A stretch of 35,774 nt of DNA from a virus. Its lineage: Duplodnaviria; Heunggongvirae; Uroviricota; Caudoviricetes. Below, in pieces: positions 2,979-35,139 of the stretch (the stretch's first letter is position 1; every line of letters begins with the position of its first letter). Made by a program: the position numbers and the translations under genes. The notes below the pieces were generated by a model. The model saw only the letters and a list, made by a program, of their open reading frames with translations. It was not told the origin of the DNA and did no database searches. The stretch is from the IMG/VR virus record IMGVR_UViG_2534681674_000025; one strand, 5' to 3'.

Positions 2979-3329
2979 ATGAAAAAAAACGCTAATAATC
3001 CATACTCCAAATTTCGTAATGGCGTAGAACGCCATGTACACCACGTCGCTACCAGTGCATCACGTAGTAACAGTCGCTATAACCTGAACGAGACGCACGC
3101 AACACCGGATGGCCACGCTGTAAAACAAATCGGCGAGCATGCCTGGCTGATTGAGAAAGCTGGAATCGTGGTCCACAAATGCCCACGCAATCCGTTTACC
3201 GGAAACCGCATTTTTGCATTGAACTGCGGCGACAATCACTTCGGGCAGGATTTCACATTATACGAAGCACTTCGCACGGTTGATCGTCTGCTTCGCGGGC
3301 AAAGTTTTATTAAACAGGCTGATTTATAA
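2979..3329 (+). CDS. Hypothetical early-operon protein (116 aa)
   Basis: ORF in operon context; no recognisable motif. Confidence 0.55.
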   Translation: MKKNANNPYSKFRNGVERHVHHVATSASRSNSRYNLNETHATPDGHAVKQIGEHAWLIEKAGIVVHKCPRNPFTGNRIFALNCGDNHFGQDFTLYEALRTVDRLLRGQSFIKQADL

Positions 3330-3339
3330 CAGGTGCTTT

Positions 3340-3618
3340 ATGACCAAAGAGCATGCACAAGGTGTATTTATCCGTTTTATTGATTTTCGCGGTGAACTGT
3401 TATTACGCGCATCAGCCATTGACGTAGTTGTTCCATCCGAAAAAAACGCAGCTACTTACGTTTATCTGAACGGTACGCGCCTGACTGTGGAGCTTCCGTA
3501 CCAGACCGTACGAGAAATCATTAGCGAAGCTGAAAAGGCACGTCAGGTTAATGGCGATGAACCCTATATCGAAATTATTTGTATGGATTCAGAAGCTGAA
3601 ATTCAGAAAGCAGATTAA
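3340..3618 (+). CDS. Hypothetical early-operon protein (92 aa)
   Basis: ATG at 3340 within the 3280-3618 ORF, directly after the preceding gene. Confidence 0.55.
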   Translation: MTKEHAQGVFIRFIDFRGELLLRASAIDVVVPSEKNAATYVYLNGTRLTVELPYQTVREIISEAEKARQVNGDEPYIEIICMDSEAEIQKAD

Positions 3619-3629
3619 AGGGCGTTGTG

Positions 3630-3872
3630 ATGGGCAAAGAATATAAAACTCTCATTAACAAAGCACTTGAGCGTTTTTATTTTCGCTTAAGTGCATCAGG
3701 CGCTCATGCTGAACGTGCGGCCCGTGACTCATTGACCAGAGCAATCCGAAGTCTGTATGACGTGGCTTTTTACGCTGATGATCTGGATGCACTTAACGAA
3801 CTTTCCGAGCTGATCTATGCCGCAGAATGCGGGGAACATATTGAACCGTATAAGCTGGGAAATATCGCATGA
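3630..3872 (+). CDS. Hypothetical early-operon protein (80 aa)
   Basis: ORF with AAAGGG RBS; stop overlaps the next start (ATGA). Confidence 0.5.
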   Translation: MGKEYKTLINKALERFYFRLSASGAHAERAARDSLTRAIRSLYDVAFYADDLDALNELSELIYAAECGEHIEPYKLGNIA

Positions 3873-3982
3873 GTATATTTATCTCATGGCTTGTTCTGAT
3901 TATTTCGGTGGTCTGCGCCATTGGGATTATGCGAATTATTAATTCAGTAAAAAAGATTGAACGCTTTTTCACTGAAGAATAA
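3869..3982 (+). CDS. Small hydrophobic single-helix peptide (37 aa: MSIFISWLVLIISVVCAIGIMRIINSVKKIERFFTEE)
   Basis: Translationally coupled ATGA overlap with the upstream gene; one predicted transmembrane helix; below the ORF-track size cut-off, read from the sequence. Confidence 0.4.
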   Translation: MSIFISWLVLIISVVCAIGIMRIINSVKKIERFFTEE

Positions 3983-4068
3983 CCGCGCAAATAAGACCCC
4001 AGGTTAAATAAGAAAATGTGAAAACAATCCGCATTCGCGGAGGTATTCGCACACGCCAAGGAGGCGTA

Positions 4069-4272
4069 ATGGCAATTAAGCATTTTCCCGTCGTTCGTTT
4101 CACCTCCAAAGGACGTGAATACGAAGTTGACGAACGCCTGATTACCACAATCGACAAACACCGTTCAGAAAAGGATGCATATCACATCTATCTCACTGAC
4201 GGCACTTACTTTTGCGCCACCAACGTGGTGCAGGTAAATCTTATCAGACAGGTACAGGAGTCACGCAGATGA
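4069..4272 (+). CDS. Hypothetical early-operon protein (67 aa)
   Basis: AAGGAGG RBS upstream of ATG 4069; stop overlaps the next start. Confidence 0.5.
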   Translation: MAIKHFPVVRFTSKGREYEVDERLITTIDKHRSEKDAYHIYLTDGTYFCATNVVQVNLIRQVQESRR

Positions 4273-4514
4273 CCATTCTGGACTACATCGCTGCCAATCC
4301 GGGTTGTAGCGGTGGAGAAATCGCCGCAGCACTGAATACACCAACCACAACCATTAATGCGGAGCTACGCCGTCTCTGGCGCAGCGGTTCAGTCATAAGA
4401 AAAGAGCGCAAAACAGGCGGTCGCTTTTCTTATCAGGTAAACCCGATGCCGTTTGGGTGTAGCAACCCACTAACCCAGATGTTCAACCAGCTACTGAGGG
4501 AAATCAGAGCATGA
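4269..4514 (+). CDS. Small winged-helix-like DNA-binding protein (81 aa)
   Basis: MTILDYIAANPGCSGGEIAAALNTPTTTINAELRRLWRSGSV resembles a wHTH recognition module; ATGA overlap with the upstream gene. Confidence 0.55.
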   Translation: MTILDYIAANPGCSGGEIAAALNTPTTTINAELRRLWRSGSVIRKERKTGGRFSYQVNPMPFGCSNPLTQMFNQLLREIRA

Positions 4515-4655
4515 GCACCTCCAACTGCCGGAAACCACGTCGGGCTTCAGCAGCTCATCCGGCAGCAAAACAAACTCCATTAATTCCTGTTCCGGGTCTT
4601 TCCTGCACCTTGTGGCGGGAGGCCTTCGCACATCTGTAACAAGAGGATTGCCGCA

Positions 4656-19372: not shown

Positions 19373-19514
19373 CCCACCCACATGGGGAAACCTCGGAATA
19401 TGGGGCGACCGCCTTCTGGATGCACTGGAAACCTGTAACGCGGATAAACGGGCCATTGCTGAACTGGATAAGAGAATAGCCGAACTGACACACCAGACGG
19501 GAGTAACACAATGA
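19233..19514 (+). CDS. o-spanin lipoprotein (Rz1/LysC-like, 93 aa) overlapping the i-spanin in another frame
   Basis: Lipobox LLTGC after a short signal sequence; proline-rich mature region; overlapping arrangement as in P2 lysB/lysC. Confidence 0.6.
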   Translation: MNAPTLCLTLVLLTGCAGTQNAPRPAPSVRLIPQTLTMPVTPPPFPDPPTWGNLGIWGDRLLDALETCNADKRAIAELDKRIAELTHQTGVTQ

Positions 19515-21391
19515 CCAGTAAGAACTTTGCACTGATTACAGCCATGACACAGGCTGAACTGACCCGGAAAGTGAATGAATATCTTGCGAAGGGGTGGCAT
19601 CTTCAGGGGGACACACGGGTAGCTTACGAGCCCGGCACCCCGTGGTATCTCATGCAGGCCATGGTGGCCGATGGTGCCACCGAGACGCCCTCTGAGCCAT
19701 TACCAAACAACAAGACGCCGGAATGGTACTACGTGGTTGTGCTTGCCGGGCAGTCCAACGGCATGGCTTACGGTGAAGGGCTTCCGTTACCGGATTCTTA
19801 CGATGCTCCGGATCCGCGCATTAAACAGCTGGCGCGCCGCAGTACGGTACCCCCGGGTGGAGAGGGTTGTACGTATAACGACATCATCCCGGCTGACCAC
19901 TGTCTGCATGATGTGCAGGATATGAGTACGCTGAATCATCCGAAGGCGGACCTGAGCAAAGGTCAGTACGGCTGTGTGGGACAGGGACTTCATATTGCCA
20001 AAAAACTACTCCCGTATATCCCGAATAACGCGGGGATCCTGCTGGTACCATGCTGTCGTGGTGGTTCGGCATTCACTCAGGGCGCGGAGGGAACATTCAG
20101 TACGACCACGGGGGCCAGCCAGGATTCGGCGCGCTGGGGTGCGGGTAAGCCGTTATATCAGGACCTGATCGCACGCACCAAAGCGGCATTACAGAAGAAC
20201 CCGAAAAATGTGTTGCTGGCGGTGTGCTGGATGCAGGGCGAATTTGACATGAGCGCTGCCACCTACGCACAGCAACCGGACCTGTTCACGGCCATGCTGA
20301 AGCAGTTCCGTACTGACCTTTCCGGATTTAACGCGCAGTGCCATGGCGGCAGTGCTGCAGTTATACCGTGGATTTGTGGCGACACGACGTATTACTGGAA
20401 AAACACATACGGCACACAGTATGACTCCGTCTACGGCGCGTACAAAAACAGGGAGAGCGACAACGTTTTCTTTGTGCCGTTCATGACCGACGGTAACGGC
20501 AACAACACGCCCACCAACTTACCGGCAGAAGACCCGGATATTGCTGATGCAGGTTATTACGGCGCGCAATCCCGTAGTAATGGTAATTGGGTATCGTCAA
20601 ATCGTCCGACACATTTCAGTTCATGGGCACGCAGGGGCATTATTTCGGATCGCCTGGCAACCGCTATTCTGAACGCAGTTGGTCGAACCAGCGCCTTCAT
20701 CAGCGGTACCGCACCGGAAATCAAACCCTCGCCCGGCGGCGACACTCCATCGGGGCCGTCTGATGGTGACACATCCGTTCGTACAGTCTCCCTGCTGCCG
20801 ACAGCCGGAGAGGCTGCTGCGCAGGGCTGGACCATCACCGGCGGCAGTGTTGCGCTGGAAGATGGTGTGTTTAAGGTTACCAAGCAGAGCAATAAAACTT
20901 GGTCCCTGATGCATCCGGTGGATGACGCAGTCTCCCTGCTGACACGGGGTGGCAGACTGAGCTGTAAGTTTCGACTGTCAGGCGCACTGACCAACAACCA
21001 GTTCGGTCTGGGAATTTATCTGTATACCGATGTAGCGTTACCTGACGTCGTGGCGATGACCGGGACTGGTAACCCGTTCCTGATGTCGTTCTTCACCCAG
21101 ACCACAGACGGCAAACTGAATCTGATGCATCACAAGAAAGCCGGAAACACAAAGTTGGGCGAGTTCGGGAATTACAGTAACGACTGGCAGACGCTGGAGC
21201 TGGTGTTCACCGCCGGCAGTGCCACGGTTACTCCGAAACTGAATGGAGTGGCTGGCCCGGCATTCCAGGTCATAAAAGACAGTCTGACACTGGGGCTGAA
21301 TGCGCTGACGTTAACTGATATCACTAAAAATGCCGCGTACGGCGTCGATATCGGCAGCCTGGTGCTGGAAATCAATAATCCCGCAGTATAA
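19511..21391 (+). CDS. NanS-p-like O-acetyl esterase (DUF1737 + SASA/SGNH hydrolase domains, 626 aa), moron
   Basis: N-terminal DUF1737-like segment (AMTQAELTRKVNEYLAKGWHLQGD); SGNH-type catalytic motif VLAGQSNGMAYGEG; architecture of prophage-encoded NanS-p esterases of enterohaemorrhagic E. coli as recalled. Confidence 0.8.
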   Translation: MTSKNFALITAMTQAELTRKVNEYLAKGWHLQGDTRVAYEPGTPWYLMQAMVADGATETPSEPLPNNKTPEWYYVVVLAGQSNGMAYGEGLPLPDSYDAPDPRIKQLARRSTVPPGGEGCTYNDIIPADHCLHDVQDMSTLNHPKADLSKGQYGCVGQGLHIAKKLLPYIPNNAGILLVPCCRGGSAFTQGAEGTFSTTTGASQDSARWGAGKPLYQDLIARTKAALQKNPKNVLLAVCWMQGEFDMSAATYAQQPDLFTAMLKQFRTDLSGFNAQCHGGSAAVIPWICGDTTYYWKNTYGTQYDSVYGAYKNRESDNVFFVPFMTDGNGNNTPTNLPAEDPDIADAGYYGAQSRSNGNWVSSNRPTHFSSWARRGIISDRLATAILNAVGRTSAFISGTAPEIKPSPGGDTPSGPSDGDTSVRTVSLLPTAGEAAAQGWTITGGSVALEDGVFKVTKQSNKTWSLMHPVDDAVSLLTRGGRLSCKFRLSGALTNNQFGLGIYLYTDVALPDVVAMTGTGNPFLMSFFTQTTDGKLNLMHHKKAGNTKLGEFGNYSNDWQTLELVFTAGSATVTPKLNGVAGPAFQVIKDSLTLGLNALTLTDITKNAAYGVDIGSLVLEINNPAV

Positions 21392-24335: not shown

Positions 24336-24936
24336 TTCACTGTTACCACCATCAGCCAGCAATTTCATGCGTTGTGCCGAAGCCGTCGGAACACGCATTA
24401 CAGACATTCCGGTAGACCTCAACACGCTGTGGTCGCCGGACACCTGCCCGGTGCATCTGCTGCCTTATCTCGCCTGGGCGTTTTCCGTTGACCGCTGGGA
24501 TCGCAACTGGCCGGAAGAGACAAAGCGACAGGTAATTCGTGATGCATGGCTGACACACCGACACAAAGGGACCATCAGCGCACTGCGAAGAGCCGTGGAG
24601 CCTCTCGGCTACCTGATTGAAGTAAAGGAGTGGTGGCAACTCAACGAGGAGCCAGGAACATTTCGCATTGTTGTCGGAGTACTTGATCAGGGCATCACCG
24701 ATGAAATGTATCAGGAACTTGAGCGCCTTATTGCGGATGCAAAACCAGTAAGTCGCCATCTGACGGGGCTGGCGATCAGCCTGAGTGTGAACGGAAAGAT
24801 TTTCGTTGGTACGGGATGCTATCACGGCGATGCCCTGACGGTTTATCCCTACACCCCGGAGTCCATTATTGTCGAAGGGGATTATTTCCCTGCCCCGGCC
24901 ATTCATTTAATTGATAATCTGAGAGTAAACGCATGA
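24328..24936 (+). CDS. I: Baseplate/tail protein, gpI homologue (202 aa)
   Basis: ATG at 24328 overlapping the J stop; position before tail-fibre gene H. Confidence 0.85.
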
Positions 24937-26936
24937 CAGTGAAATACTACGCCATTCTGACTAATCAGGGCGCGGCACGACTGGCTAACGCGACGATGCT
25001 CGGCAGTAAGCTGAATCTGACGCAAATGGCCGTTGGTGATGCAAATGGTGTGTTACCAACACCAGACCCTGCACAAACAAAACTGATTAACCAGAAACGC
25101 ATTGCACCGCTGAATCTTCTGAATGTTGACCCTAACAATCAGAGCCAGATTATTGCGGAGCAAATCATCCCTGAAGACGAGGGAGGATTCTGGATCCGTG
25201 AGATTGGTCTTTATGATGATAAAGGTGTACTCATTGCGGTGGCAAACTGCCCGGAAACGTACAAACCGCAGTTGCAGGAAGGCAGTGGACGCACCCAGAC
25301 TATCCGCATGATTCTGGTTGTCACGAACACCAAAGCCATCACGCTGAAAATCGACCCGTCTGTGGTTCTGGCAACCCGCAAATATGTGGATGATAAAATC
25401 TCAAAGCACGAGCAGTCACGACGTCACCCGGACGCCTCACTGACCGCAAAAGGCTTTGTTCAACTCAGTAGCGCCACCAACAGCGATTCAGAAACGCTGG
25501 CGGCAACACCAAAGGCGGTAAAGGCAGCCTATGACCTTGCTAACGGGAAATATACCGCACAGGACGCCACGACAGCACAAAAAGGCATTGTCCAGCTCAG
25601 TAGCGCCACCAACAGCGATTCAGAAACGCTGGCGGCAACACCAAAGGCGGTAAAGGCAGCCTATGACCTTGCTAACGGGAAATATACCGCACAGGACGCC
25701 ACGACGGCACAAAAAGGAATTGTCCAGCTCAGTAGTGCAACCAACAGCACATCTGAAACGCTTGCTGCAACACCGAAAGCAGTGAAAGCAGCTAATGACA
25801 ATGCGAATGGTCGGGTACCTTCTGCCCGTAAGGTGAATGGTAAGGCGCTTTCGGCGGATATAACACTGACGCCGAAAGATATTGGTACGCTTAACTCAAC
25901 AACAATGTCATTCAGCGGTGGTGCTGGTTGGTTCAAATTAGCAACGGTAACCATGCCACAGGCGAGTTCTGTTGTTTCAATTACGTTGATTGGTGGCGCT
26001 GGATTTAACGTCGGTTCACCTCAACAGGCAGGTATATCTGAACTTGTTTTGCGTGCAGGTAATGGTAATCCGAAGGGGATTACTGGTGCTTTATGGCAGC
26101 GCACATCGACAGGGTTTACAAATTTTGCCTGGGTCAATACATCTGGTGATACTTACGATATTTACGTTGCAATCGGAAATTATGCGACTGGTGTAAATAT
26201 TCAATGGGATTATACCAGTAATGCCAGCGTGACGATTCATACGTCACCAGCATATTCTGCTAATAAGCCGGAAGGGTTAACGGACGGTACAGTTTATTCA
26301 CTCTATACGCCATCAGAGCAGTTTTATCCGCCTGGCGCACCAATCCCGTGGCCATCGGATACCGTTCCGTCTGGTTATGCCCTGATGCAGGGGCAGACTT
26401 TTGACAAATCTGCCTACCCGAAACTTGCAGCCGCTTATCCGTCAGGCGTGATCCCTGATATGCGTGGCTGGACGATTAAGGGCAAACCCGCCAGTGGCCG
26501 GGCCGTATTGTCTCAGGAACAGGACGGCATTAAATCGCACACCCACAGCGCCAGCGCATCCAATACGGATTTGGGGACGAAAACCACATCGTCGTTTGAT
26601 TACGGTACTAAAACGACCAGTTCATTTGATTACGGCACAAAAACCACAAATAGCGCAGGAGCTCATTCACACAATATACCTGTTGGTCACACTGGCGCGG
26701 GGAATGGTGTATCAGCCGGTTATAACGCTGCGTTAGGTACTGGTACCACGTCGAGCGCAGGAGAGCATGCTCACAATGTATATATCGGTGCCCATAACCA
26801 CACTATCGGCATTGGTGCTCATGCCCATTCTGTCATTATTGGTCCCCACGGACACACCATCACCGTTAATGCTACGGGGAACGCAGAAAACACCGTAAAA
26901 AACATCGCATTTAACTATATTGTGAGGCTTGCATAA
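24933..26936 (+). CDS. H: Tail fibre protein, gpH homologue (667 aa) with internal tandem repeats and His-rich C-terminal domain
   Basis: Conserved N-terminus [20 protein letters not shown]...; three 44-aa collar repeats ([23 protein letters not shown]); C-terminal [10 protein letters not shown] repeats and HxH motifs. Confidence 0.9.
25455..25810 (+). repeat. Tandem 132-bp coding repeats inside H (two near-identical copies plus a diverged third)
   Basis: Copy 1 at 25455-25586 and copy 2 at 25587-25718 are nearly identical at DNA level; copy 3 (25719-25810) is diverged. Confidence 0.85.
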
Positions 26937-27514
26937 TGACATTCAGAATGAGTGAACAATCACGGACCATAAAAATTTATAATCTACTGACCGGAACCAA
27001 TGAGTTTATTGGTGAAGGTGATGCATACATTTCACCTCATACAGGTCTGCCTGCAAACAGTACCGATATTGCCCCGCCAGATATTCCGGCTGGCTTCGTG
27101 GCCGTTTTCAACAGTGATGAGGCATCGTGGCATCTCGTTGAAGACCATCGGGGTAAAACGGTTTATGACGTGGCATCAGGGGACTCGTTATTTATTTCTG
27201 AACTCGGTCCGTTACCGGAAAATGTTACCTGGTTGTCGCCGTATGGAGAGTATCAGAAGTGGAACGGCACATCCTGGGTGAAAGATGCAGAAGCAGAAAA
27301 ACTATTTCGGATAAGGGAGGCGGAAGAAACAAAAAACAGCCTGATGCAGGTAGCCAGTGAGCATATTGCACCACTTCAGGATGCTATAGATTTAGATATT
27401 GCGACGGAGGAAGAGACATCGTTACTGGCTGCATGGAAGACATATCGAGTATTGTTGCATCGTGTTGATACAACAGTAGCAGCAGATATTGAGTGGCCAG
27501 TCGCCCCACAATAA
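26936..27514 (+). CDS. G: Tail fibre assembly chaperone, gpG/Tfa homologue (192 aa)
   Basis: Directly downstream of H with TAATG overlap; size near P2 gpG. Confidence 0.85.
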
Positions 27515-27520
27515 AAAGAA

Positions 27521-27550
27521 AAAGCCATCGATAGAAATATCGATGGCTTT
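27521..27550. terminator. Bidirectional rho-independent terminator between convergent G and acetyltransferase genes
   Basis: Perfect 13-bp stem AAAGCCATCGATA / TATCGATGGCTTT with GAAA loop; T-rich tail on the minus strand. Confidence 0.7.
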
Positions 27551-27557
27551 ATGTACT

Positions 27558-28130
27558 CTATTTATACAATACAGCACCGCTCTTTTTAGTTATATATGTG
27601 CAGTTCGATGGTATATCTTTATTTATAAAAGACATTGCACCTATTTTTACATTATCCCCAATTTTACGGGATAATCCAATGATGCAACAATTAGCTCCGA
27701 TATCAACGTTGCTACCAATTTTTACTCTTGAACCAGGTATGTCACCATCTATCTGTCCAATGGTCGTATTCTGTCGTAACACCAGATTTTCACCAGCATC
27801 AACAGCAAAATGAACAACAATTCCAGCATGATGGGGAATTGTTAACCCTTTTCCAATATTTGCGCCCAATCCAATTTCGCAACCAAATTTGTTAATTATT
27901 TTACTGTTTAACTTCTTGGCTGCTTTCTTATGTAATTTATTACCATTAATATACATTTCGTTAGCCAACCGCCACCAGAAAAGGAAATTCCTGTTACGCT
28001 GCTTTTTCTCTCTTAAAAGCCTCCAGATATCCATACGTTTCCGCCGAATTACTTCATGTTTCCAGAAGTTTTTTAAATTAGTAGAGTTCCCAAATAAAAC
28101 AAAGTGAATTGCCATTAGGTAAGACAGCAC
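27558..28130 (-). CDS. Hexapeptide-repeat (left-handed beta-helix) acetyltransferase, CysE/NodL/NeuO-like, in an AT-rich island (190 aa from GTG 28130; longest ORF to 28163)
   Basis: Hexapeptide repeats (IGANIGKGLTIPHHAGIVV, IGSNVDIGANCCIIG, IGDNVKIGAMSFI); RBS AAGGAG 6 nt before GTG; strongly AT-rich relative to flanking phage genes. Confidence 0.8.
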   Translation of the reverse strand: MLSYLMAIHFVLFGNSTNLKNFWKHEVIRRKRMDIWRLLREKKQRNRNFLFWWRLANEMYINGNKLHKKAAKKLNSKIINKFGCEIGLGANIGKGLTIPHHAGIVVHFAVDAGENLVLRQNTTIGQIDGDIPGSRVKIGSNVDIGANCCIIGLSRKIGDNVKIGAMSFINKDIPSNCTYITKKSGAVLYK

Positions 28131-28286
28131 GATAATCTCCTTAATTATTATTTCAGACCACACATGTTATAAGGTTAAGAGATTATAAAATCCTGTTGTT
28201 TATTATTCAAAAACAATTTTCTGAGAAGGACATACAACAGCAAGTCGCCAGTCACCTTCATCAGGAAATTGGCGACATACGTTAAA

Positions 28287-28781
28287 TCAGAGCAGCCCCT
28301 TAACTGAGCTGGCCGCGCTATTAAGGGATGATGTCACCTTATCTTTGAAGCCGGACAACATATCGCTGAACGATGAGGATTGCAGGCGCTCCCGCAAATC
28401 CTCATCACAGCGTTCAAGAGTCAGTGAAAATTCTATCTTTTTCGCCTTACCGTAGCGATCAAACTCGGAACGGGTCGTATTCGTTTCAGTCAGTACATAC
28501 ATGCCGTAAATCTGCCCGACACCATCAATCAGAGGCCAGGGCCGTCCTGTATATGCCTGCGTGGTCAGCAATGAAAGCGACACTTCGCCACCTGTAATTT
28601 CAGGATAAAGCACGCCGGAAAGCACAATGAGATCATCACCTGCACCGATATACTGCCAGCTTGCTGAACGGTTAACGCGTTCATTTTTCACATGCCGCCA
28701 GCTTTTGTTTTGCTGTAACTGCTGATGCGGCAATGTGCGCAGCTCAAAAACAAACATGCCGTAGATCATCATCATGACCAT
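28287..28781 (-). CDS. U: Tail protein U homologue (164 aa)
   Basis: SWRH...LSGVLYPEITGGEVSLSLL...RSEF matches gpU as recalled; follows the tape-measure gene. Confidence 0.85.
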   Translation of the reverse strand: MVMMMIYGMFVFELRTLPHQQLQQNKSWRHVKNERVNRSASWQYIGAGDDLIVLSGVLYPEITGGEVSLSLLTTQAYTGRPWPLIDGVGQIYGMYVLTETNTTRSEFDRYGKAKKIEFSLTLERCDEDLRERLQSSSFSDMLSGFKDKVTSSLNSAASSVKGLL

Positions 28782-28787
28782 GACTCC

Positions 28788-31631
28788 TCAATCTTTATCG
28801 TAAAAACTGCCACGTCCGGCACGGGCGCGCCGTTCCATCTCTGCCCTGACCATTTCACCGACCAGTTTCGCCAGTTCGCGGGGATTCTGCGTAACAACGT
28901 TATGCAGATGAACATGAATTTCACCGCAAAATCCGGAGACAGCAGGCTCCCGGTTACGGGAAGTTGCAGGAACTGATGCCACTGGCGATCGTATGGCCTC
29001 CGCCACCGGGCGGGAGCTGGCCGCAACAACAGGGACCAGCGCCGGAGGCAGCGGAGCCGAGACCACGGGTGTGATATTAATTGCGGGGGCAGGCTTACTG
29101 ACCTGCGCAATCTTCCGCTCCTGCCACTCCCCACGAACAGCAAGTGCGCGGGGCAGGTTCTTAAAGACAATATCGCCGGGGCCAATGCGTTTTTTCGTCT
29201 CATCAACCAGCTTACCTGTGTTATCAGCAATTTTGCTGAGTCTGCGTAGCGTCCCGGTATTGCTGTCTGTGAGCGGTTTGTTGTCTTTGGGTTTATCACC
29301 TCCGGTGCCATTGCCATTTTCCACAGGCTTCGGCGGATTGATTTTCGCCAGGTCCCCCTGAAGCAAGGCAACCTTGTCCTGAAGAATGGCCGCACGCTGT
29401 GCGTCTTCGATTTTCTTGCGCGCCCTTTCCGCTTCATCCGGAAGGACACCAAGTTTTTCAAGTATCCACGCCAGCGTATCCAGTAGCATTTTTGCAGGTG
29501 TCAGAACAAGTTGTAACGCACCGCCAAGAACGTTACCGAATACCTCGCCAGCACTGGTGCATTTATCCAGCGTTTCCTTGCTGGACTCCATCGGTGACAA
29601 CAGCGATTTAAACCAGTTAAACACCAGGCTGATCCCGCTTCCGATTGCGTCAAAAACAGGGCCAAACCGTTCAAAGGTTTCACGCAACGGGGTCAGCCTT
29701 TCCATAATCCCGCTGAACACCCCGGCAAAAAATGCCCTGATGGGATCCCAGTATTTCCAGATAAGAACGGCAGCTCCGGCAAGCGCAGCCACGATAAGAC
29801 CAACCGGACTGAACAGCGCCCCGATAGCGCCACCCAGCAAAGAAACAGAACCCGTCACCATTCCCCACAGCGCAGGCAACACCCTGATGACATTCATTGA
29901 CCGGGTAAGAATGTCGAAACCAAGACGCAAGGTGGCCAGCTTCCCGTAAAGCACCCCAATAACCAGCGACAACGAGCCAATCGTTGCAGTCATTGCCAGC
30001 AACGCACCGCCTGCTATCAGTAGCTGGCGCGTCAGTACCGGATGGGCCTGCGCCAGCGAGGTGATTTTTTCAAGCACCCGCGTGAGCCACTGCGTGACAG
30101 AACGCAGCGGACCGTCAACCAGATCACTGATGCGAATACGAAGACCTTCCCATGCGCTGTCGAGATTTTTCAGGTCTCCATCAAGATTATCGGCCATTAC
30201 TTTTGCAACGCGATCGGCCTCTCCCCTTGCCCCCTGCAATTCTCTGGTCAGTTTTTGCAGTTCTCCTGAACCAGCCGCCGCAACAAGCGTCTGCAAACCA
30301 ACGAACGCCTCTTCTCCGGCGATGTCCTTGAAGAAGGAGACCTGGTCCACCTGTCCGTATTTTTGTGTCGCCTTATAGAGATCAAGCAGCACATCCTCCA
30401 TCGGGCGCATTTTGCCTCTGGCGTCAGCAACTGACACCCCCAGCTCTTTCAGTGCATCAGCCGCAGCTTTTGGCGGTGATGCAAGGCGGGACAGACTTGC
30501 GCGCATGGCCGTACCAGCATCGCTTCCGCGAAGACCATTATTGGCAAGCATCCCGGCCATGGCCGCCGCTTCTTCAAGACTGATACCAAGTTTTGCGGCA
30601 ACCGGACCGGTATACTTCATGGTTTCGCCCAGCGCGCGTAAATCAGTATTGGTCCGGGTGAATGCTGCTGTCAGCGTATCGCCAACCCGGTCCATTTGAT
30701 CGGCTGTCAGGTTGAACTGTGTGAGGATATTGGAGCCTATATCAGCCGTCTCGCCGAGTTCGACGCCACCTGCCAGCGCCATATTAAGAACACCGGGCAA
30801 TGCGGCCTGAATGGCCTGCGGAGTAAAACCAGCCATTGCCAGAAAGCTCTGCCCACTGGCGGCATCACTCGCAGTAAACTGTGTTTCAGAACCAAGTTTT
30901 AACGCCTGCTCACGCAGCGCCTTAAACTGCGGGCTGTTTTTGTCGATTCGCGTCAGTGCCTGAACGCGGGACATCTCTTTGCCGAACCCGATCGCAGGCT
31001 GCAAAAAACGCCCGGCGGCATAGCCGCCAGCCGCTGCAGCACCAATTGCCAGCGCACCACCTGTTTTCAGTTTTCCCGCGGTTTCCTGCGCGCGCGAATA
31101 CCGCTCACGCGCCCGCGTTACACGCGCAAGCGCCTGCCGTTCGCGTTCAAGCTGGTTGTTGTACTGTTCGGTGCGTCTGATGGCCTGCTGGATGGTGTTA
31201 TCGCTGCCTGTCAGGGAAATGCCGTGGCGTTTCAGCTCTCCGCCAAGCTCCCGCATTTTCTGAATTTCCCGTGTGCGCGATTCATTCAGGCGTTCAAGCC
31301 GGGTGCTTAACTGCTGCATCAGCTTTTGTTGTTTTTCGCTGAGCACTGTACCCGTGCGTTGTAACTGATTAAGGGCGTTAAGCTGGCGTCGTGCTTTCAC
31401 GATGCCAGCATCCGCTTTACTGACAGCGTCACGGGCGCGCTCAAATGAACGCGCCTGACGCTCGAGATTTTTGATCGCCCCCTGCGTTCGCTGGATGGAG
31501 TCACCAAACTGCCCCATCAGGCGGCGGGCGTTTTCGGCAGGCCGGGTCAGCCTGTCAACGGCGCTGAAAGCGACCCGGATATCAAGAGTCTTCATTATCT
31601 GCATTCCCGCTGCGAAGTGCCGCCCGCTCAC
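28788..31631 (-). CDS. T: Tail tape measure protein, gpT homologue (start uncertain; 947 aa from longest ORF)
   Basis: Large alpha-helical, Ala/Gly-rich protein between the tail chaperone and U genes. Confidence 0.9.
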   Translation of the reverse strand: MSGRHFAAGMQIMKTLDIRVAFSAVDRLTRPAENARRLMGQFGDSIQRTQGAIKNLERQARSFERARDAVSKADAGIVKARRQLNALNQLQRTGTVLSEKQQKLMQQLSTRLERLNESRTREIQKMRELGGELKRHGISLTGSDNTIQQAIRRTEQYNNQLERERQALARVTRARERYSRAQETAGKLKTGGALAIGAAAAGGYAAGRFLQPAIGFGKEMSRVQALTRIDKNSPQFKALREQALKLGSETQFTASDAASGQSFLAMAGFTPQAIQAALPGVLNMALAGGVELGETADIGSNILTQFNLTADQMDRVGDTLTAAFTRTNTDLRALGETMKYTGPVAAKLGISLEEAAAMAGMLANNGLRGSDAGTAMRASLSRLASPPKAAADALKELGVSVADARGKMRPMEDVLLDLYKATQKYGQVDQVSFFKDIAGEEAFVGLQTLVAAAGSGELQKLTRELQGARGEADRVAKVMADNLDGDLKNLDSAWEGLRIRISDLVDGPLRSVTQWLTRVLEKITSLAQAHPVLTRQLLIAGGALLAMTATIGSLSLVIGVLYGKLATLRLGFDILTRSMNVIRVLPALWGMVTGSVSLLGGAIGALFSPVGLIVAALAGAAVLIWKYWDPIRAFFAGVFSGIMERLTPLRETFERFGPVFDAIGSGISLVFNWFKSLLSPMESSKETLDKCTSAGEVFGNVLGGALQLVLTPAKMLLDTLAWILEKLGVLPDEAERARKKIEDAQRAAILQDKVALLQGDLAKINPPKPVENGNGTGGDKPKDNKPLTDSNTGTLRRLSKIADNTGKLVDETKKRIGPGDIVFKNLPRALAVRGEWQERKIAQVSKPAPAINITPVVSAPLPPALVPVVAASSRPVAEAIRSPVASVPATSRNREPAVSGFCGEIHVHLHNVVTQNPRELAKLVGEMVRAEMERRARAGRGSFYDKD

Positions 31632-32120
31632 GCCAGCTAACCACTTCGCCGGGCGTCATCATGAAGATTTCGGCGGGCGACCAGTTAAAAATGGCGGCAA
31701 TATCCGCCACCAGATCTTCGATGTGCTCAAAGCACACCAGAGTGATTACGCTGCCGTCTCCTGCACGCTCTTCGCGCCAGAGTCTGGCTCGCTCATAAAA
31801 TTTACAGCCACTGCGCACAACTGAATAAAATCGCGTGACGACATTTTTTTAATCATCACTTCATCCAGTCGTGGCGAGGTCACGCGAGGCAACAGCGTAA
31901 ACATGGTATCCGCTTTCAGATTCAGCACATCAGACAGCGACAGACCACGCAGGGATCCAGCCTGCTCAATAGCCCCGGTGATCTCCACATACGTGATTTT
32001 TTCGCCACCACGCTCAATTGGTCGGGTCAGTTTTACGCCACGTTCGACAGCCATATCCTCACCTGCCGTCACATCATCCGCCACGGTGTTATTCCGGGTT
32101 TCAGTATCGATGTCTTTCAT
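31582..32120 (-). CDS. gpE+E' fusion product made by programmed -1 ribosomal frameshift (E frame to about 31845, then -1 frame to 31585)
   Basis: -1 frame ORF (31582-31848) overlaps the E 3' end; the shift must occur on the A7 run because a TAA lies in the -1 frame immediately upstream. Confidence 0.6.
31746..32120 (-). CDS. E: Tail assembly chaperone gpE homologue (likely start at 32054, about 102 aa)
   Basis: Position between the tube and tape-measure genes; contains a slippery A-run near its 3' end with an overlapping -1 frame ORF. Confidence 0.8.
   Translation of the reverse strand: MKDIDTETRNNTVADDVTAGEDMAVERGVKLTRPIERGGEKITYVEITGAIEQAGSLRGLSLSDVLNLKADTMFTLLPRVTSPRLDEVMIKKMSSRDFIQLCAVAVNFMSEPDSGAKSVQETAA
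31844..31850 (-). promoter_or_regulatory. Slippery sequence (A7 on the coding strand) for the E/E' -1 frameshift
   Basis: AAAAAAA within codons ATT AAA AAA ATG of E; conserved tail-chaperone frameshift logic. Confidence 0.55.
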
Positions 32121-32175
32121 CAGTTGTCTCCTTTTCAGTCAAAGGCGACGCACTGCGCCGCCTGCATATTACTTA

Positions 32176-32688
32176 TCAGCCAAGCCCAAGCGCGGAACGG
32201 ATACGGTCAGGCACAATGTCCTTGCCGTCCTTCCGGTAGATGTGGTTCAACAGGTCGATTTCCCACAGCGGGCGATCGTTAACGCTCAGCTTGTAGTAGG
32301 TGTTTTTGACAGCGTAAGTGTGTGATGTGGCTTCGCCCTGTTTGGCTTCCCCCATATCAATTTCCGTCACACGCCCGCGCATCTCGATTTCATACAGATC
32401 GCTTTCTGCATCGGTGTAGTATTCACCCGCAAAACGCAGCAGCGTGCCGTCAATCGTGCCGCCATATTTAAGGAACAGCGCACGAACAGCTCCCCCCATG
32501 ACAAAACTCGCATCAAGCGCGGAGTCGTCCAGACCGAGATCAATACTTACCGCCCCCATCATGCCACCACCACGATAGCTGTCGGTTTTGCGCGTCAGTT
32601 TGGGCGGCGTGACGGATGTCACTTTACCCACTTCGTTTTCACCATCCACAAACAACGTAAAAAAGCGAAGATGTTTTGGTACAGCCAT
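32176..32688 (-). CDS. FII: Tail tube protein, gpFII homologue (170 aa)
   Basis: Size matches P2 FII (172 aa); directly downstream of the sheath gene. Confidence 0.9.
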   Translation of the reverse strand: MAVPKHLRFFTLFVDGENEVGKVTSVTPPKLTRKTDSYRGGGMMGAVSIDLGLDDSALDASFVMGGAVRALFLKYGGTIDGTLLRFAGEYYTDAESDLYEIEMRGRVTEIDMGEAKQGEATSHTYAVKNTYYKLSVNDRPLWEIDLLNHIYRKDGKDIVPDRIRSALGLG

Positions 32689-33872
32689 CAGGCACCTCCC
32701 AGCACCGCAAATGCGGGACCAAAGAATTCATCAGTAAACGTCTGGTAAAGCTCCATGTCTTCCAGCGGGGGAACAGGCGTATATTTGTAGCGAATACGCA
32801 CACGTCCCTGACGTAAATTCGTGGTGCCGTTATCCACCACGTCATACCAGCACTCCGCACCAATCAGTTTCCCGGCAGTAACCAGCGAATCCAGTTTTGC
32901 CCTGATGGCGCTGATAACATCCTTCACATTCGCAGGTGTCAGTGGACTGTCGATGGTTTCAAACTGCGCTTCCGCAATTGAATCAGCCAGCACCTGTGCG
33001 GTTCGGGTATACACCTCAAAGATGTAGGCGTTCGTTTCCGGTGTGCGGTTGCCCCAGAAGCGGAACCCGTTGCGACGAATAATGGTCGTGATTTCTTTGT
33101 TGTTGAGGCTATTGGCATCGCTGTCTTCGGCCTGCAACGACCAGAACACATGCCTGGACATTCCCAGCACATTTTTAACCGGAACGTTGGACAGCGATTT
33201 GTGCCAGCCCTGCTCATGGTCAATGTACGCACGAAGGCCGCACGCATAAGCAGGCGCGGGGAACGTTTCGTTTTTGCCACTTTTCGGGTTGTAGGCGATG
33301 AAGTCCGGCCATAAGAGCATCACCTCACGTTCGTTGAATTTCTGGCGGTAGGTAATCGCCTCAGCCATCGTGTTACAGCCGTGACATGAGGCATACACAA
33401 ACGCGCGCAGTTTACCTGCAATCACGCACAGGGATTTTGTTACAGCCTCCGTGTCCAGCTCCGGCGCGGCCAGAATACGCGGACGGTATCCGATGCTTTC
33501 ATCCTGCTCTGCAACAAGCAGCGCATACATCCCCGTATAGCTGCCGTCATCCTCAGAACCACCGATAACCAGTTGATCCTGCGTCTTTCCGTCTTCTTCT
33601 TTGTGTTCAGCCACGCGAACGACGATCACCTTTGTGCTCACCTGGTCTGCGATGGCCTTAAGCGCACGATAAAGCGTCCCCGTTGTCCCGCATTTTCCCA
33701 GCACGTCATTGACGCGGGTCAGCAGTGTGGGCTTATTCAGCGGGAACAGCTTCGCGTCCGCATCATCCGCCGTTGCCACGATACCGATAACGCTGGAATC
33801 AACATCGTTAATCGCTGTTACCAGGTCGGTATTTTCCGTAACACGGGCACCATGAAAACGAGTTTCACTCAT
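32688..33872 (-). CDS. FI: Contractile tail sheath protein, gpFI homologue (394 aa)
   Basis: FPLNKP, KLRAF.Y, WPDF, EQGWHK.LSNV, IRR.GFRFWGNRT, YTPVPPLE motifs match P2 FI as recalled. Confidence 0.92.
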   Translation of the reverse strand: MSETRFHGARVTENTDLVTAINDVDSSVIGIVATADDADAKLFPLNKPTLLTRVNDVLGKCGTTGTLYRALKAIADQVSTKVIVVRVAEHKEEDGKTQDQLVIGGSEDDGSYTGMYALLVAEQDESIGYRPRILAAPELDTEAVTKSLCVIAGKLRAFVYASCHGCNTMAEAITYRQKFNEREVMLLWPDFIAYNPKSGKNETFPAPAYACGLRAYIDHEQGWHKSLSNVPVKNVLGMSRHVFWSLQAEDSDANSLNNKEITTIIRRNGFRFWGNRTPETNAYIFEVYTRTAQVLADSIAEAQFETIDSPLTPANVKDVISAIRAKLDSLVTAGKLIGAECWYDVVDNGTTNLRQGRVRIRYKYTPVPPLEDMELYQTFTDEFFGPAFAVLGGA

Positions 33873-34029
33873 AGCTTCAGCCCCTTGTATCCGTTAAATG
33901 ATTCGGCAACAATCATCACCCACCACGTGCGTAATCTCACCCCTGCGCCGTTCTCCCGCCACGGCGACAACAAAAAGCAGTAACCCCCTCCGCACGCACA
34001 TGCGACCATGCCGCACAGGGAGGGAACAG
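33873..34029. promoter_or_regulatory. Divergent promoter region between FI (-) and D (+) with candidate late-activator site
   Basis: GTTCT-N12-ACAACAAAAAG at 33950-33977, same motif, spacing and orientation as the site between P and O (14605-14631). Confidence 0.4.
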
Positions 34030-35139
34030 ATGACCGATACCACCATGCAATTGCTCAGTCAGGGCACAGACCCCGTGAAAATGCCGGATTTTGATATTCT
34101 CGCGGAGGGTAAAACGCTGTCAGGCGTGGCAGAGCGCCTGATGAGCCTGTCACTGACCGACAACCGGGGATTTGAGGCGGACCAGCTCACCATCACGCTG
34201 GATGATGCGGATGGTCAGTTGCAGCTACCGCCACGGGGCGCGCGCCTGACGGTTCTCATTGGCTGGAAAGGAGAACCGCTGACAGAAAAAGGCACTTACA
34301 TTGTTGATGAAATCGCTCACGAAGGACCGCCGGACAGGCTGACTGTTTCAGCCAGAAGCGCAGATTTTCGGGATGAATTTAACGTTAAACGTGAGGTGTC
34401 CTGGCATGATGTGACCGTTGAGCGCGTGGTATCTGCCATCGCTCATCGGTACGGTCTGAAACCGCAAATCAGCGAAATGCTGATGGATATCGAAATCGAC
34501 CACGCCGACCAGACCGAAGAAAGCGATATGTCCTTCCTTACGCGCATGGCGGAAATGCTGGGCGCAATCACCACGGTAAAAAGCGGCAATCTGTTATTCA
34601 TCATGCCAGGTGGTGGCGTGAACGCACAGGGCCAGCCGTTGCCCTCGTTCGCCATTACACGCAGCAGCGGCGATCGCCATCAGTTCCGTATTGCTGACCG
34701 CGAGGCGTATACGGGGGTACGCGCCTACTGGCTTGATCTTAATTACGGGAAAAAGAAAAAAGTCAGCGTGAAACGCCGTAAACCGCCAAAACCCAAAAAG
34801 GAGAAAAGCAGCAGCCGTGAAGGTGATTATATGGAAGGCGCGGAAGGCAATGTGTTTGTGTTACGCAAGACTTATCAGAACGAGCAGGCAGCAAGACGCG
34901 CAGCGGCGGCAAAGTGGCAGCAGCTACAACGCGGAGCCGCATCATTCTCCATCACGCTGGCATGTGGTCGTGCAGAACTCTACCCCGAAATGCATGGCAC
35001 GGTAACAGGATTTAAAAGCGAGATTGATAATCAGGACTGGATTATTGCAAAAGCCGAGCACACCATCGATAACAGCGGCTTTACCACGCAGCTTGAGCTT
35101 GAGGCAAAAATCTCGGAATGGATAGCAGAAACAGAGTGA
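34030..35139 (+). CDS. D: Tail protein D homologue (369 aa)
   Basis: AGGGAGG RBS before ATG 34030; size near P2 gpD (387 aa); followed by ogr. Confidence 0.88.
   Translation: MTDTTMQLLSQGTDPVKMPDFDILAEGKTLSGVAERLMSLSLTDNRGFEADQLTITLDDADGQLQLPPRGARLTVLIGWKGEPLTEKGTYIVDEIAHEGPPDRLTVSARSADFRDEFNVKREVSWHDVTVERVVSAIAHRYGLKPQISEMLMDIEIDHADQTEESDMSFLTRMAEMLGAITTVKSGNLLFIMPGGGVNAQGQPLPSFAITRSSGDRHQFRIADREAYTGVRAYWLDLNYGKKKKVSVKRRKPPKPKKEKSSSREGDYMEGAEGNVFVLRKTYQNEQAARRAAAAKWQQLQRGAASFSITLACGRAELYPEMHGTVTGFKSEIDNQDWIIAKAEHTIDNSGFTTQLELEAKISEWIAETE

Follow-up and report, generated by a model that had tools for sequence, protein, structure and literature searches.

A predicted glycan O-acetyltransferase gene linked to the tail-fibre genes of a P88-like prophage of Escherichia coli

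The virus record IMGVR_UViG_2534681674_000025 of IMG/VR, a stretch of 35,774 nucleotides referred to here as the window, is a P88-like (Xuanwuvirus, Peduoviridae) prophage of Escherichia coli. Between its tail-fibre genes and its tail-core genes lies a short AT-rich gene for an acetyltransferase of the left-handed beta-helix (LbH, hexapeptide) type, annotated in RefSeq as a serine acetyltransferase. To judge from its sequence and from the gene neighbourhoods of its relatives, the product is fairly likely to be an O-acetyltransferase of a glycan and not of serine. The gene is systematically linked to tail-fibre assembly genes across unrelated phages, a linkage absent from an earlier description of this DNA made from its letters alone (the sequence-only reading).

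On the plus strand the region begins with J-I-H(tail fibre)-G(tfa); the acetyltransferase gene comes next, then the minus-strand run U-T-E'-E-FII-FI, and finally D and ogr, again on the plus strand (Table 1). The tfa and gpU genes flank the acetyltransferase gene, which agrees with the place first given for it, between the tail-fibre chaperone gene and the tail-core block. The fibre is a chimera whose tip, with tfa, shares 87.5–91% nucleotide identity with the lambda stf/tfa genes and 94–95% with those of the P1-like JL22 and Ro157c2YLVW; the block held in common with P1-like phage-plasmids at 94–95% extends over the acetyltransferase gene too. Positions 27400–28400 are 100% identical in E. 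coli 55989 and in several Shiga toxin-producing E. coli (STEC) strains; the 55989 copy of the prophage adjoins the tRNA-Leu/Cys/Gly-pgsA locus.

The longest minus-strand open reading frame of the interval between tfa and gpU covers 27558–28163 and is the single real gene there. Its start codon is GTG at 28130, in line with the RefSeq call and with the N-termini of homologues. The gene had been described as AT-rich with its own ribosome-binding site, and both features are borne out: its GC content is 35.6% (32.5% at third codon positions) against 53.0% in the remaining window, and AAGGAG precedes the GTG by 6 nt. The lowest-GC 573-bp segment of the whole 35.8 kb falls within the gene, with 0.45% of the sliding segments equally low.

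The stop codons of the convergent tfa and acetyltransferase genes are separated by a hairpin, which had been called a bidirectional terminator. It folds strongly on both strands (−19.5 kcal/mol, z −6.95, on the plus strand; −18.8 kcal/mol, z −5.19, on the minus strand; 0 of 200 shuffles as good), but a proper U-run, UUUUUCUUUUU, follows it on the minus-strand reading only, so that it would serve the acetyltransferase gene as a canonical terminator but tfa only weakly. The hairpin is also kept in the P1-like copies of the locus. Upstream of the gene, a sigma-70-like promoter with 10 of 12 consensus matches is predicted about 45 nt from the start codon, within a 156-bp AT-rich spacer that is specific to this phage backbone. 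The region contains 5 promoter-like sites against a shuffle expectation of 3.4 ± 1.9, a count indistinguishable from the shuffled background, and the promoter is therefore a prediction only.

By its predicted promoter and terminator, its deviant GC content and its presence or absence among related phages, the gene classifies as a moron. This is an already known kind of gene, the AT-rich lysogenic-conversion moron placed after tail-fibre genes. The AT-richness of P2 lysogenic-conversion genes is the subject of a paper by Calendar et al. (1998), known here from its title as cited in PMC5694545.

The slot that holds the gene is variable among relatives, as had been anticipated. In P88, 520873 and Shae_phiSM it is occupied by an oppositely oriented second tail-fibre tip, a tfa gene and a DNA invertase gene, arranged as an invertible segment, while in PhiR44_2 it measures 253 bp only and has no cargo gene. 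Another P88-like lineage (loci L020–L022, 5617–6605) carries a 70%-identical acetyltransferase gene, an 87-residue tfa remnant and a class-I methyltransferase gene, a content that shows serial accretion of cargo. The suggested equivalence with the Z/fun position of P2 also holds: IMG/VR phages of canonical P2 order (L093, L097 and L109) carry a homologue of 64–65% identity in the opposite orientation, precisely in the G-FI interval that holds Z/fun in P2. The window gene resembles Z/fun in its position in the tail gene order, in being AT-rich and dispensable and in varying between relatives. Unlike in P2, the protein is an unrelated one, the slot of relatives is an invertible fibre segment and the FI-U block is inverted; since the tail-core block is inverted relative to P2, the slot here is G..U and not G..FI.

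The inverted FI-FII-E-T-U block spans 28287–35139, with gpD (33898–35139) and ogr remaining on the plus strand. In P88, 520873 and Shae_phiSM the DNA invertase gene is found exactly at this junction, which hints at the origin of the inversion or of the cargo slot.

Table 1. Features of the acetyltransferase locus and the esterase gene, in window coordinates
Feature	Position	Strand	Basis or remarks
NanS-p/YjhS-type sialate O-acetylesterase	19511–21391	+	domains DUF1737, SASA and DUF6645
Tail fibre	24933–26936	+	Pfam Phage_tail_fib, Phage_fiber_2, Collar; P2 gpH-type N-terminus, lambda Stf (orf-314)-type tip
tfa, lambda Tfa (orf-194)-type tail-fibre assembly chaperone	26936–27514	+	Caudo_TAP, E-value 1e-40
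Terminator hairpin between convergent stop codons	27521–27550	both	13-bp stem
LbH acetyltransferase coding sequence, 190 residues	27558–28130	−	RefSeq WP_000954200.1 "serine acetyltransferase"; phrog_2154
Ribosome-binding site AAGGAG	28142–28137	−	read from sequence
Predicted sigma-70-like promoter	28210–28182	−	TTGAAT-17 nt-TATAAT
gpU tail gene, right edge of variable slot, first of the inverted U-T-E-FII-FI block	28287–28781	−	Phage_P2_GpU, E-value 2.5e-38

Fold, family and active site

The AlphaFold2 model of the protein, built with 55 homologues, has a mean predicted local distance difference test score (pLDDT) of 90.2 and contains five helices at residues 2–82 followed by a beta-helix, a coiled beta-strand domain comprising residues 84–165. 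The Pfam Hexapep model scores 23.9 bits, under its gathering score of 27. The top matches in the PDB, by Foldseek and by sequence, are serine acetyltransferases, with TM-scores of 0.6–0.7, a Foldseek probability of 1.00 and family-profile E-values down to 4e-25; no WcaB structure was present among these matches for comparison. On the model and the profile matches the protein belongs to the LbH acyltransferase superfamily, and the catalytic His and Asp/Glu residues are kept, so that the original assignment as a hexapeptide acetyltransferase stands.

Within the superfamily, the protein matches the profile phrog_2154 (E-value 3.3e-86, residues 13–190 against profile positions 3–181 of 185), which PHROGs labels as of unknown function. 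None of the NCBIfam equivalog cut-offs is reached. The serine acetyltransferase models TIGR01172 (cysE) and NF008349 give 61.1 bits against a cut-off of 210.65 and 36.1 against 397, EpsC gives 74.8 against 150, and the two WcaB models give 53 against 196 and 51.9 against 194.65. Far lower scores than for CysE and WcaB are obtained with the NeuD and maltose/galactoside acetyltransferase families; of the "CysE/NodL/NeuO-like" label given earlier, the relation to CysE holds and one to WcaB is added, but the rest does not find support in these scores.

The family profile was also compared by hhalign with the CysE and WcaB sequences from the E. coli K-12 genome. WcaB, the colanic acid O-acetyltransferase of E. 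coli, gives an E-value of 8e-24 with 35% identity over the whole beta-helix, and CysE an E-value of 6e-18 with 28% identity. The window protein is thus homologous to WcaB while being no WcaB or EpsC equivalog. Like WcaB, it is short and soluble, a design which in WcaB goes with a sugar substrate at the cytoplasmic face, and the histidine motif TIHHG of WcaB corresponds to TIPHHAG here. It differs from WcaB in its N-terminal helical domain, and its gene is mobile and single, outside the wca cluster.

The similarity to CysE (PDB codes 1t3d, 6wye, 4n69 and others) comprises the helical N-terminal domain followed by the LbH, the active-site loop of equal length and the catalytic pair. His100, the equivalent of CysE His158, is conserved in 54 of the 55 family members, and the position of CysE Asp143, which is Glu85 in the window protein, is occupied by Asp in 32 and by Glu in 23 of them; Gln120 is invariant. 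The CysE substrate contacts D157, R192 and H193, which bind serine or cysteine, align in contrast to P99, S134 and R135. An Asp at the D157 column is found in 0 of 55 members, with P, A, S, F and others instead, while the R192 column (D, L, G, A, N, K and others) and the H193 column (R, V, I, Y and others) are both unconserved. The loop 126–137, which bears the equivalents of R192 and H193, is the most variable part of the domain, with an entropy of 3.01 bits as opposed to 1.18 bits in the rest of the helix.

Outside the active site, no SATase_N Pfam match is obtained and the alignment with CysE begins only at CysE residue 111. The N-terminal helical domain is around 80 residues long, compared with around 140 in CysE, and carries an invariant FWWRLAN motif. 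The C-terminus, ...KKSGAVLYK, is without the CysK-binding tail ending in Ile. Membership in the CysE serine acetyltransferases was rejected on these grounds, and the profile search proposed in the sequence-only reading comes out the same way, away from housekeeping CysE. As the serine-binding residues are absent and the cut-offs failed, the protein is not considered a serine acetyltransferase. It is probably, on sequence comparison, a CysE/WcaB-like LbH O-acetyltransferase whose acceptor is not an amino acid.

The protein is strongly basic (31 Lys and Arg against 12 Asp and Glu) and has no hydrophobic span, the maximum Kyte-Doolittle mean over 19 residues being 1.10. There is no match to the Pfam Acyl_transf_3 (AT3) domain, no match to any PADLOC-DB v2 defence model at an E-value of 1 or below, and nothing at 0.001 or below in a fold search of the viral database BFVD. 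No tandem repeats are found in 27450–28350, hence none of the 5' heptanucleotide (poly-psi) repeats of the NeuO type.

NeuO, from the E. coli K1 prophage CUS-3, is a soluble LbH O-acetyltransferase of polysialic acid that is encoded beside the gene of the phage receptor-binding protein and modifies the surface glycan recognized by its phage. It is the best functional analogy for the window protein, although it belongs to a different subfamily, does not appear among the sequence or PDB fold matches, and differs in the repeats mentioned above and in its hosts, those of the window gene being mostly not K1. Other seroconverting enzymes, namely Oac of Sf6, GtrC and OafA, are membrane AT3 acyltransferases which act on the periplasmic side, are expressed by the lysogen and block adsorption by acetylating the receptor glycan. 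The genes of Oac, GtrC and OafA are located beside tailspike genes or near the attachment site, and tailspike genes are also the neighbours of the NeuO, Oac and Gtr genes. The absence of an AT3 domain and of a hydrophobic span sets the window protein apart from this membrane group. To our knowledge, NeuO is the sole LbH precedent among prophage seroconverting acetyltransferases, and the statement that prophage acetyltransferases of this fold often O-acetylate surface polysaccharides was overstated, the classic enzymes being of the AT3 type.

Distribution, selection and gene neighbours

The acetyltransferase gene is present in 575 E. coli records, corresponding to 530 of 5426 complete genomes. 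Chromosomal carriers include O157:H7 (EDL933), O26, O111, O104:H4 and O55:H7 (DEC5E), and 66 of the places are on plasmids; those plasmids that were examined are P1-like phage-plasmids of about 70–100 kb. In all 575 records the 3' end of a tfa gene adjoins the acetyltransferase gene. The pair is found on P88-like backbones, on P1-like phage-plasmids and in a prophage with baseplate J and DUF2612 genes. In JL22 and Ro157c2YLVW, both P1-like, the gene lies within the C-segment between tfa and U'/S'/cin, while in strain STEC299 it is located at the end of the different, myovirus-type prophage that has the baseplate J and DUF2612 genes. Between the backbones, homology runs from the fibre tip through tfa and the terminator into the gene and ends at its start codon, which indicates that each backbone supplies its own upstream region.

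The same arrangement extends to more distant relatives. The family profile recovered 80 loci from IMG/VR, the proteins of which were clustered at 80% identity, and 11 clusters had enough downstream sequence to be judged. In 8 of these 11 a convergent Caudo_TAP gene lies within 150 bp. In two further clusters tail-fibre genes are found less than 2 kb away, one having a P2-H-like fibre and a DUF4376 chaperone just upstream and the other a tail fibre, a chaperone, DUF1353 and HtrL downstream; the remaining one has no tail gene. The pairing with tfa holds down to 44–45% protein identity, where it is found in lambdoid phages, with a phage_tail_N fibre following a J-like protein, and in Gilliamella phages with a DUF2612 baseplate. 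In one cluster (L104–L108) the acetyltransferase gene is on the same strand as, and downstream of, the tail fibre and chaperone genes.

The gene is under purifying selection, with a ratio of nonsynonymous to synonymous substitution rates (dN/dS) against the window allele of 0.10–0.25 over dS values of up to about 2–3. It is also intact in the decayed P2-like prophage of O157:H7 EDL933 (L031, NZ_CP008957.1, 2693707–2706279). In this remnant the stretch from the partition genes to tfa, head and baseplate genes included, has given way to an IS3 element, and the tape-measure gene T is frameshifted. One IMG/VR copy (L109) is a pseudogene.

Several relatives of the gene are accompanied by genes for envelope glycans, in particular by glycosyltransferase (GT) genes. 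In Xenorhabdus bovienii prophages (L113 and L114, 5001–6393) a homologue is followed 58 bp on, on the same strand, by a GT25 gene (E-value 1.6e-35), and this pair sits between the integrase gene and the tail-fibre and baseplate genes. A lambdoid prophage of Gilliamella bombicola (L164, 5001–6800) has an acetyltransferase gene and then a GT9 gene, convergent with the tail fibre and J genes. GT25 enzymes are glycosyltransferases of lipopolysaccharide (LPS) or lipooligosaccharide, and GT9 is the heptosyltransferase family. In L098 and L099 (cassette at 3074–4610 of the latter) an HtrL_YibB gene (E-value 9e-79), of a family that occurs in the waa region of E. coli, lies between the acetyltransferase gene and the tail-fibre chaperone gene.

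Chromosomal relatives have similar neighbours. In Zophobihabitans the acetyltransferase gene follows two GT9 genes and a pyruvyl transferase gene and precedes a GT25 gene, all but the first GT9 gene being on one strand. Six species of Halopseudomonas/Pseudomonas and a metagenome-assembled genome of Dechloromonas have the homologue between hldE-msbA and genes for NeuB-family (neuB/pse), GT28 and cytidylyltransferase-aminotransferase proteins, and at the Halopseudomonas locus L160 its GC content is native, 0.56 against 0.60. In a neighbour-joining tree, which is only a rough guide because it has no support values, a clade of Orbaceae mixes copies from LPS clusters with prophage copies, the clade of the window is almost entirely tail-fibre-linked, and its sister group is found on plasmids and islands. 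The LPS-type neighbours of relatives strengthen the case that the enzyme may acetylate a surface glycan.

Two further loci were noted. The Orbaceae bacterium ac157xtp (L124, 3839–6381) has a GT9-family gene followed on the same strand by two tandem acetyltransferase paralogues. Plasmids of the EAF type from enteropathogenic E. coli (EPEC) encode a 50%-identical member of the family (L010–L014, 6001–6594) downstream of the bfp operon, amid remnants of insertion sequences and far from phage genes.

Proposed function and its alternatives

The proposed mechanism begins with a self-contained moron, consisting of promoter, ribosome-binding site, gene and terminator, that would be transcribed against the late tail operon from the resident prophage in the lysogen. 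Its product would be a soluble, basic enzyme made of the N-terminal helical domain and the LbH, presumably a trimer. The His100-Glu85 pair, by analogy with His158-Asp143 of CysE, would activate the hydroxyl group of the acceptor, and the acetyl group would come from acetyl-CoA. Not L-serine but a sugar is proposed as the acceptor, one belonging to an envelope glycan that has yet to leave the cytoplasmic side of the inner membrane. The core oligosaccharide of LPS is the leading candidate; O-antigen, colanic acid or enterobacterial common antigen, in the form of undecaprenyl-linked repeat units, are alternatives.

The resulting change of the cell surface would be the selected trait, i.e., a lysogenic conversion, and its most probable pay-off an altered adsorption of phages that use the acetylated glycan. 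Interference with adsorption is viewed as the most likely benefit because the gene is coupled to receptor-binding modules; such a role would in turn account for its joint inheritance with tail-fibre and chaperone modules. From the gene and its surroundings we infer that the lysogen expresses it, that the enzyme is trimeric, what its acceptor is and that adsorption is affected. The chain as a whole, a lysogen-expressed O-acetyltransferase of a glycan, probably LPS, that acts in lysogenic conversion including receptor masking, is put forward tentatively, as the best supported of the readings considered but one slightly more apt to fail than to hold.

A number of observations weigh against it. 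The divergence of the acetyltransferase is only weakly correlated with that of tfa (Spearman 0.38, from non-independent pairs), so that the linkage may be positional, the end of the tail-fibre operon serving as a cargo site, and not functional. Lambda has stf and tfa genes of the same type without an acetyltransferase gene, and together with the weak co-divergence this points to a coupling with the terminal part of tail-fibre cassettes generally, not with one fibre specificity. The reported receptor of the lambda Stf-type tip is the protein OmpC and not LPS, and we know of no description of O-acetylation of the E. coli LPS core. The O-antigens of the carriers are diverse (O157, O26, O111, O104 and O55). 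In a scan of GTDB, 66 of 80 species-level relatives had no tail or LPS marker gene within 5 kb, and many relatives are solitary genes, on plasmids such as the EPEC EAF plasmid or beside integrase genes; several of those inspected are solitary and AT-rich or adjoin integrase genes or yejM. The first three distant homologues examined for polysaccharide clusters were likewise solitary, the LPS-type contexts having appeared in the wider GTDB scan. Full-text literature searches gave passing mentions and no functional study of any family member.

Among these mentions, the paper on JL22 leaves the presence and role of its acetyltransferase gene unexplained (PMC9603915), and a paper on Citrobacter rodentium prophages counts a "serine acetyltransferase" among the fitness cargo (PMC6456863). 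Papers by Silas et al. and on Klebsiella supply general background only. A search of the literature on CP-933T found nothing relevant. No description was found of the enzyme subfamily, its probable target, the wrong database name or its systematic transfer together with tail-fibre cassettes from one phage family to another.

A test for strict co-divergence of the acetyltransferase with its tfa gave the weak Spearman value stated above, and no specificity for one fibre type is claimed.

A wider proposition, possible but on the unlikely side, is that the members of phrog_2154 are widespread O-acetyltransferases of the LPS core or another conserved envelope glycan, which phages captured from LPS clusters of their hosts. 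They would have become welded to the tail-fibre/chaperone cassette, so that the fibre as a "key" and the acetylation as a "change of lock" move jointly between P2-, P1-, lambda- and other backbones, with the hypervariable loop tuning the target.

The alternative that comes closest to the proposed adsorption role keeps the same glycan O-acetylation and assigns its benefit to the bacterium in its animal host, through antigenicity, resistance to serum or complement, biofilm formation or colonization, with the fibre neighbourhood being a convenient site for cargo. The concentration of the gene in pathogenic lineages (O157:H7, O26, O111, O104:H4 and O55:H7, the last being DEC5E) is in line with this, although the STEC enrichment may reflect clonal sampling, as are the sister clade found next to bfp, on its downstream side, in the EAF virulence plasmid of EPEC, the weak co-divergence with tfa and the presence in the same prophage of another host-directed moron, the NanS-p-like esterase. 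The convergent pairing with tfa on very different backbones and down to 44% identity, which includes phages of insect-gut Orbaceae, speaks against it, and this alternative is considered unlikely.

An enzyme of anti-phage defence or counter-defence, acetylating a target other than a glycan such as a small-molecule signal, a nucleotide or a protein, is distinctly less probable. It would fit a single AT-rich mobile gene found in phage hotspots, on plasmids and beside integrase and toxin-antitoxin genes, and the strongly basic nature of the protein; the Z/fun slot of P2 and its relatives is known to hold defence genes. The PADLOC search described above is, however, negative, the chromosomal relatives reside with native composition in LPS-core and sugar clusters, the phage relatives are paired with glycosyltransferase genes, and the closest characterized homolog by profile comparison is a sugar acetyltransferase.

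A true serine O-acetyltransferase would make the gene an auxiliary metabolic one that provides feedback-free O-acetylserine for the supply of cysteine or for CysB signalling. The name "serine (O-)acetyltransferase" in RefSeq and its annotation pipeline PGAP, the CysE enzymes as the best matches of solved structure and the retained catalytic His and Asp/Glu all favour this function, but it is highly improbable given the scores against the serine acetyltransferase models, the absent or unconserved equivalents of D157, R192 and H193, the hypervariable loop, the short N-terminal domain, the missing CysK-binding tail and the profile that is nearer to WcaB.

Hardly credible is an action on the tail-fibre module of the phage itself, e.g., a modification of the fibre or its chaperone during assembly: the strict adjacency to tfa and the L104–L108 gene order would suit it, as opposed to a window gene that opposes the late operon with its own predicted promoter and terminator, is dispensable (lambda, other phages of the stf/tfa type and viable P88-like phages are without it) and has many relatives outside phages. 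A neutral gene that at present does nothing and rides along as tail-fibre modules recombine is just as hard to credit, since the L109 pseudogene, a copy annotated as truncated in JL22 and a 5' third of the gene that is mosaic between backbones are outweighed by the low dN/dS, the nearly invariant catalytic residues and the intact copy in the decayed O157:H7 prophage.

The glycan O-acetyltransferase reading bears on an annotation, "serine acetyltransferase", that is used everywhere and is contradicted by the residue-level tests, for a gene present in major STEC lineages. If LPS or another surface glycan is indeed acetylated, the gene would be an unrecognized factor of lysogenic conversion which could alter antigenicity and phage susceptibility, the latter being of concern for phage therapy and typing of STEC. 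It would also imply an undescribed O-acetylation of an envelope glycan in about 10% of the complete E. coli genomes, O157:H7, O26, O111 and O104:H4 included. The coupling to tail-fibre modules would exemplify receptor-binding and receptor-modifying functions that are exchanged as one cassette.

Other cargo of the prophage

Within the late operon, the esterase gene is an insertion flanked by lysis genes (LysC) on one side and tail genes on the other. It is around 87% identical in nucleotide sequence to the yjhS/"9-O-acetyl-N-acetylneuraminic acid deacetylase" genes of Stx-converting lambdoid phages, and it is absent from the sequenced Xuanwuviruses. Its alleles of at least 95% identity occur in about 51 E. 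coli records, compared with 575 for the acetyltransferase gene. The sequence-only reading had paired the two as enzymes for adding and removing O-acetyl groups; the esterase gene is indeed there, but a functional coupling was rejected on account of its Stx-phage type and independent distribution. By its sequence and distribution the esterase gene qualifies as a second, independent moron.

A second low-GC island is located on the minus strand at 771–1355, with a minimum of 0.366, where a 115-residue DUF2511 open reading frame (1008–1355) adjoins the integrase gene (1–1002). This island is probably another moron, at the end of the prophage proximal to the attachment site.

On the plus strand at 9703–10915, an IS3-family element with HTH_Tnp_1 and rve open reading frames separates the portal gene from the partition-like genes. 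It is missing from the prophage of 55989, which is nearly identical in other respects, and the coordinates of the two prophages are offset by about 1.3 kb. Genes for ParM-like plasmid segregation and for partition or stability are found at 7927–9205 on the plus strand, after the replication endonuclease gene, and are present in the O157:H7 EDL933 remnant as well.

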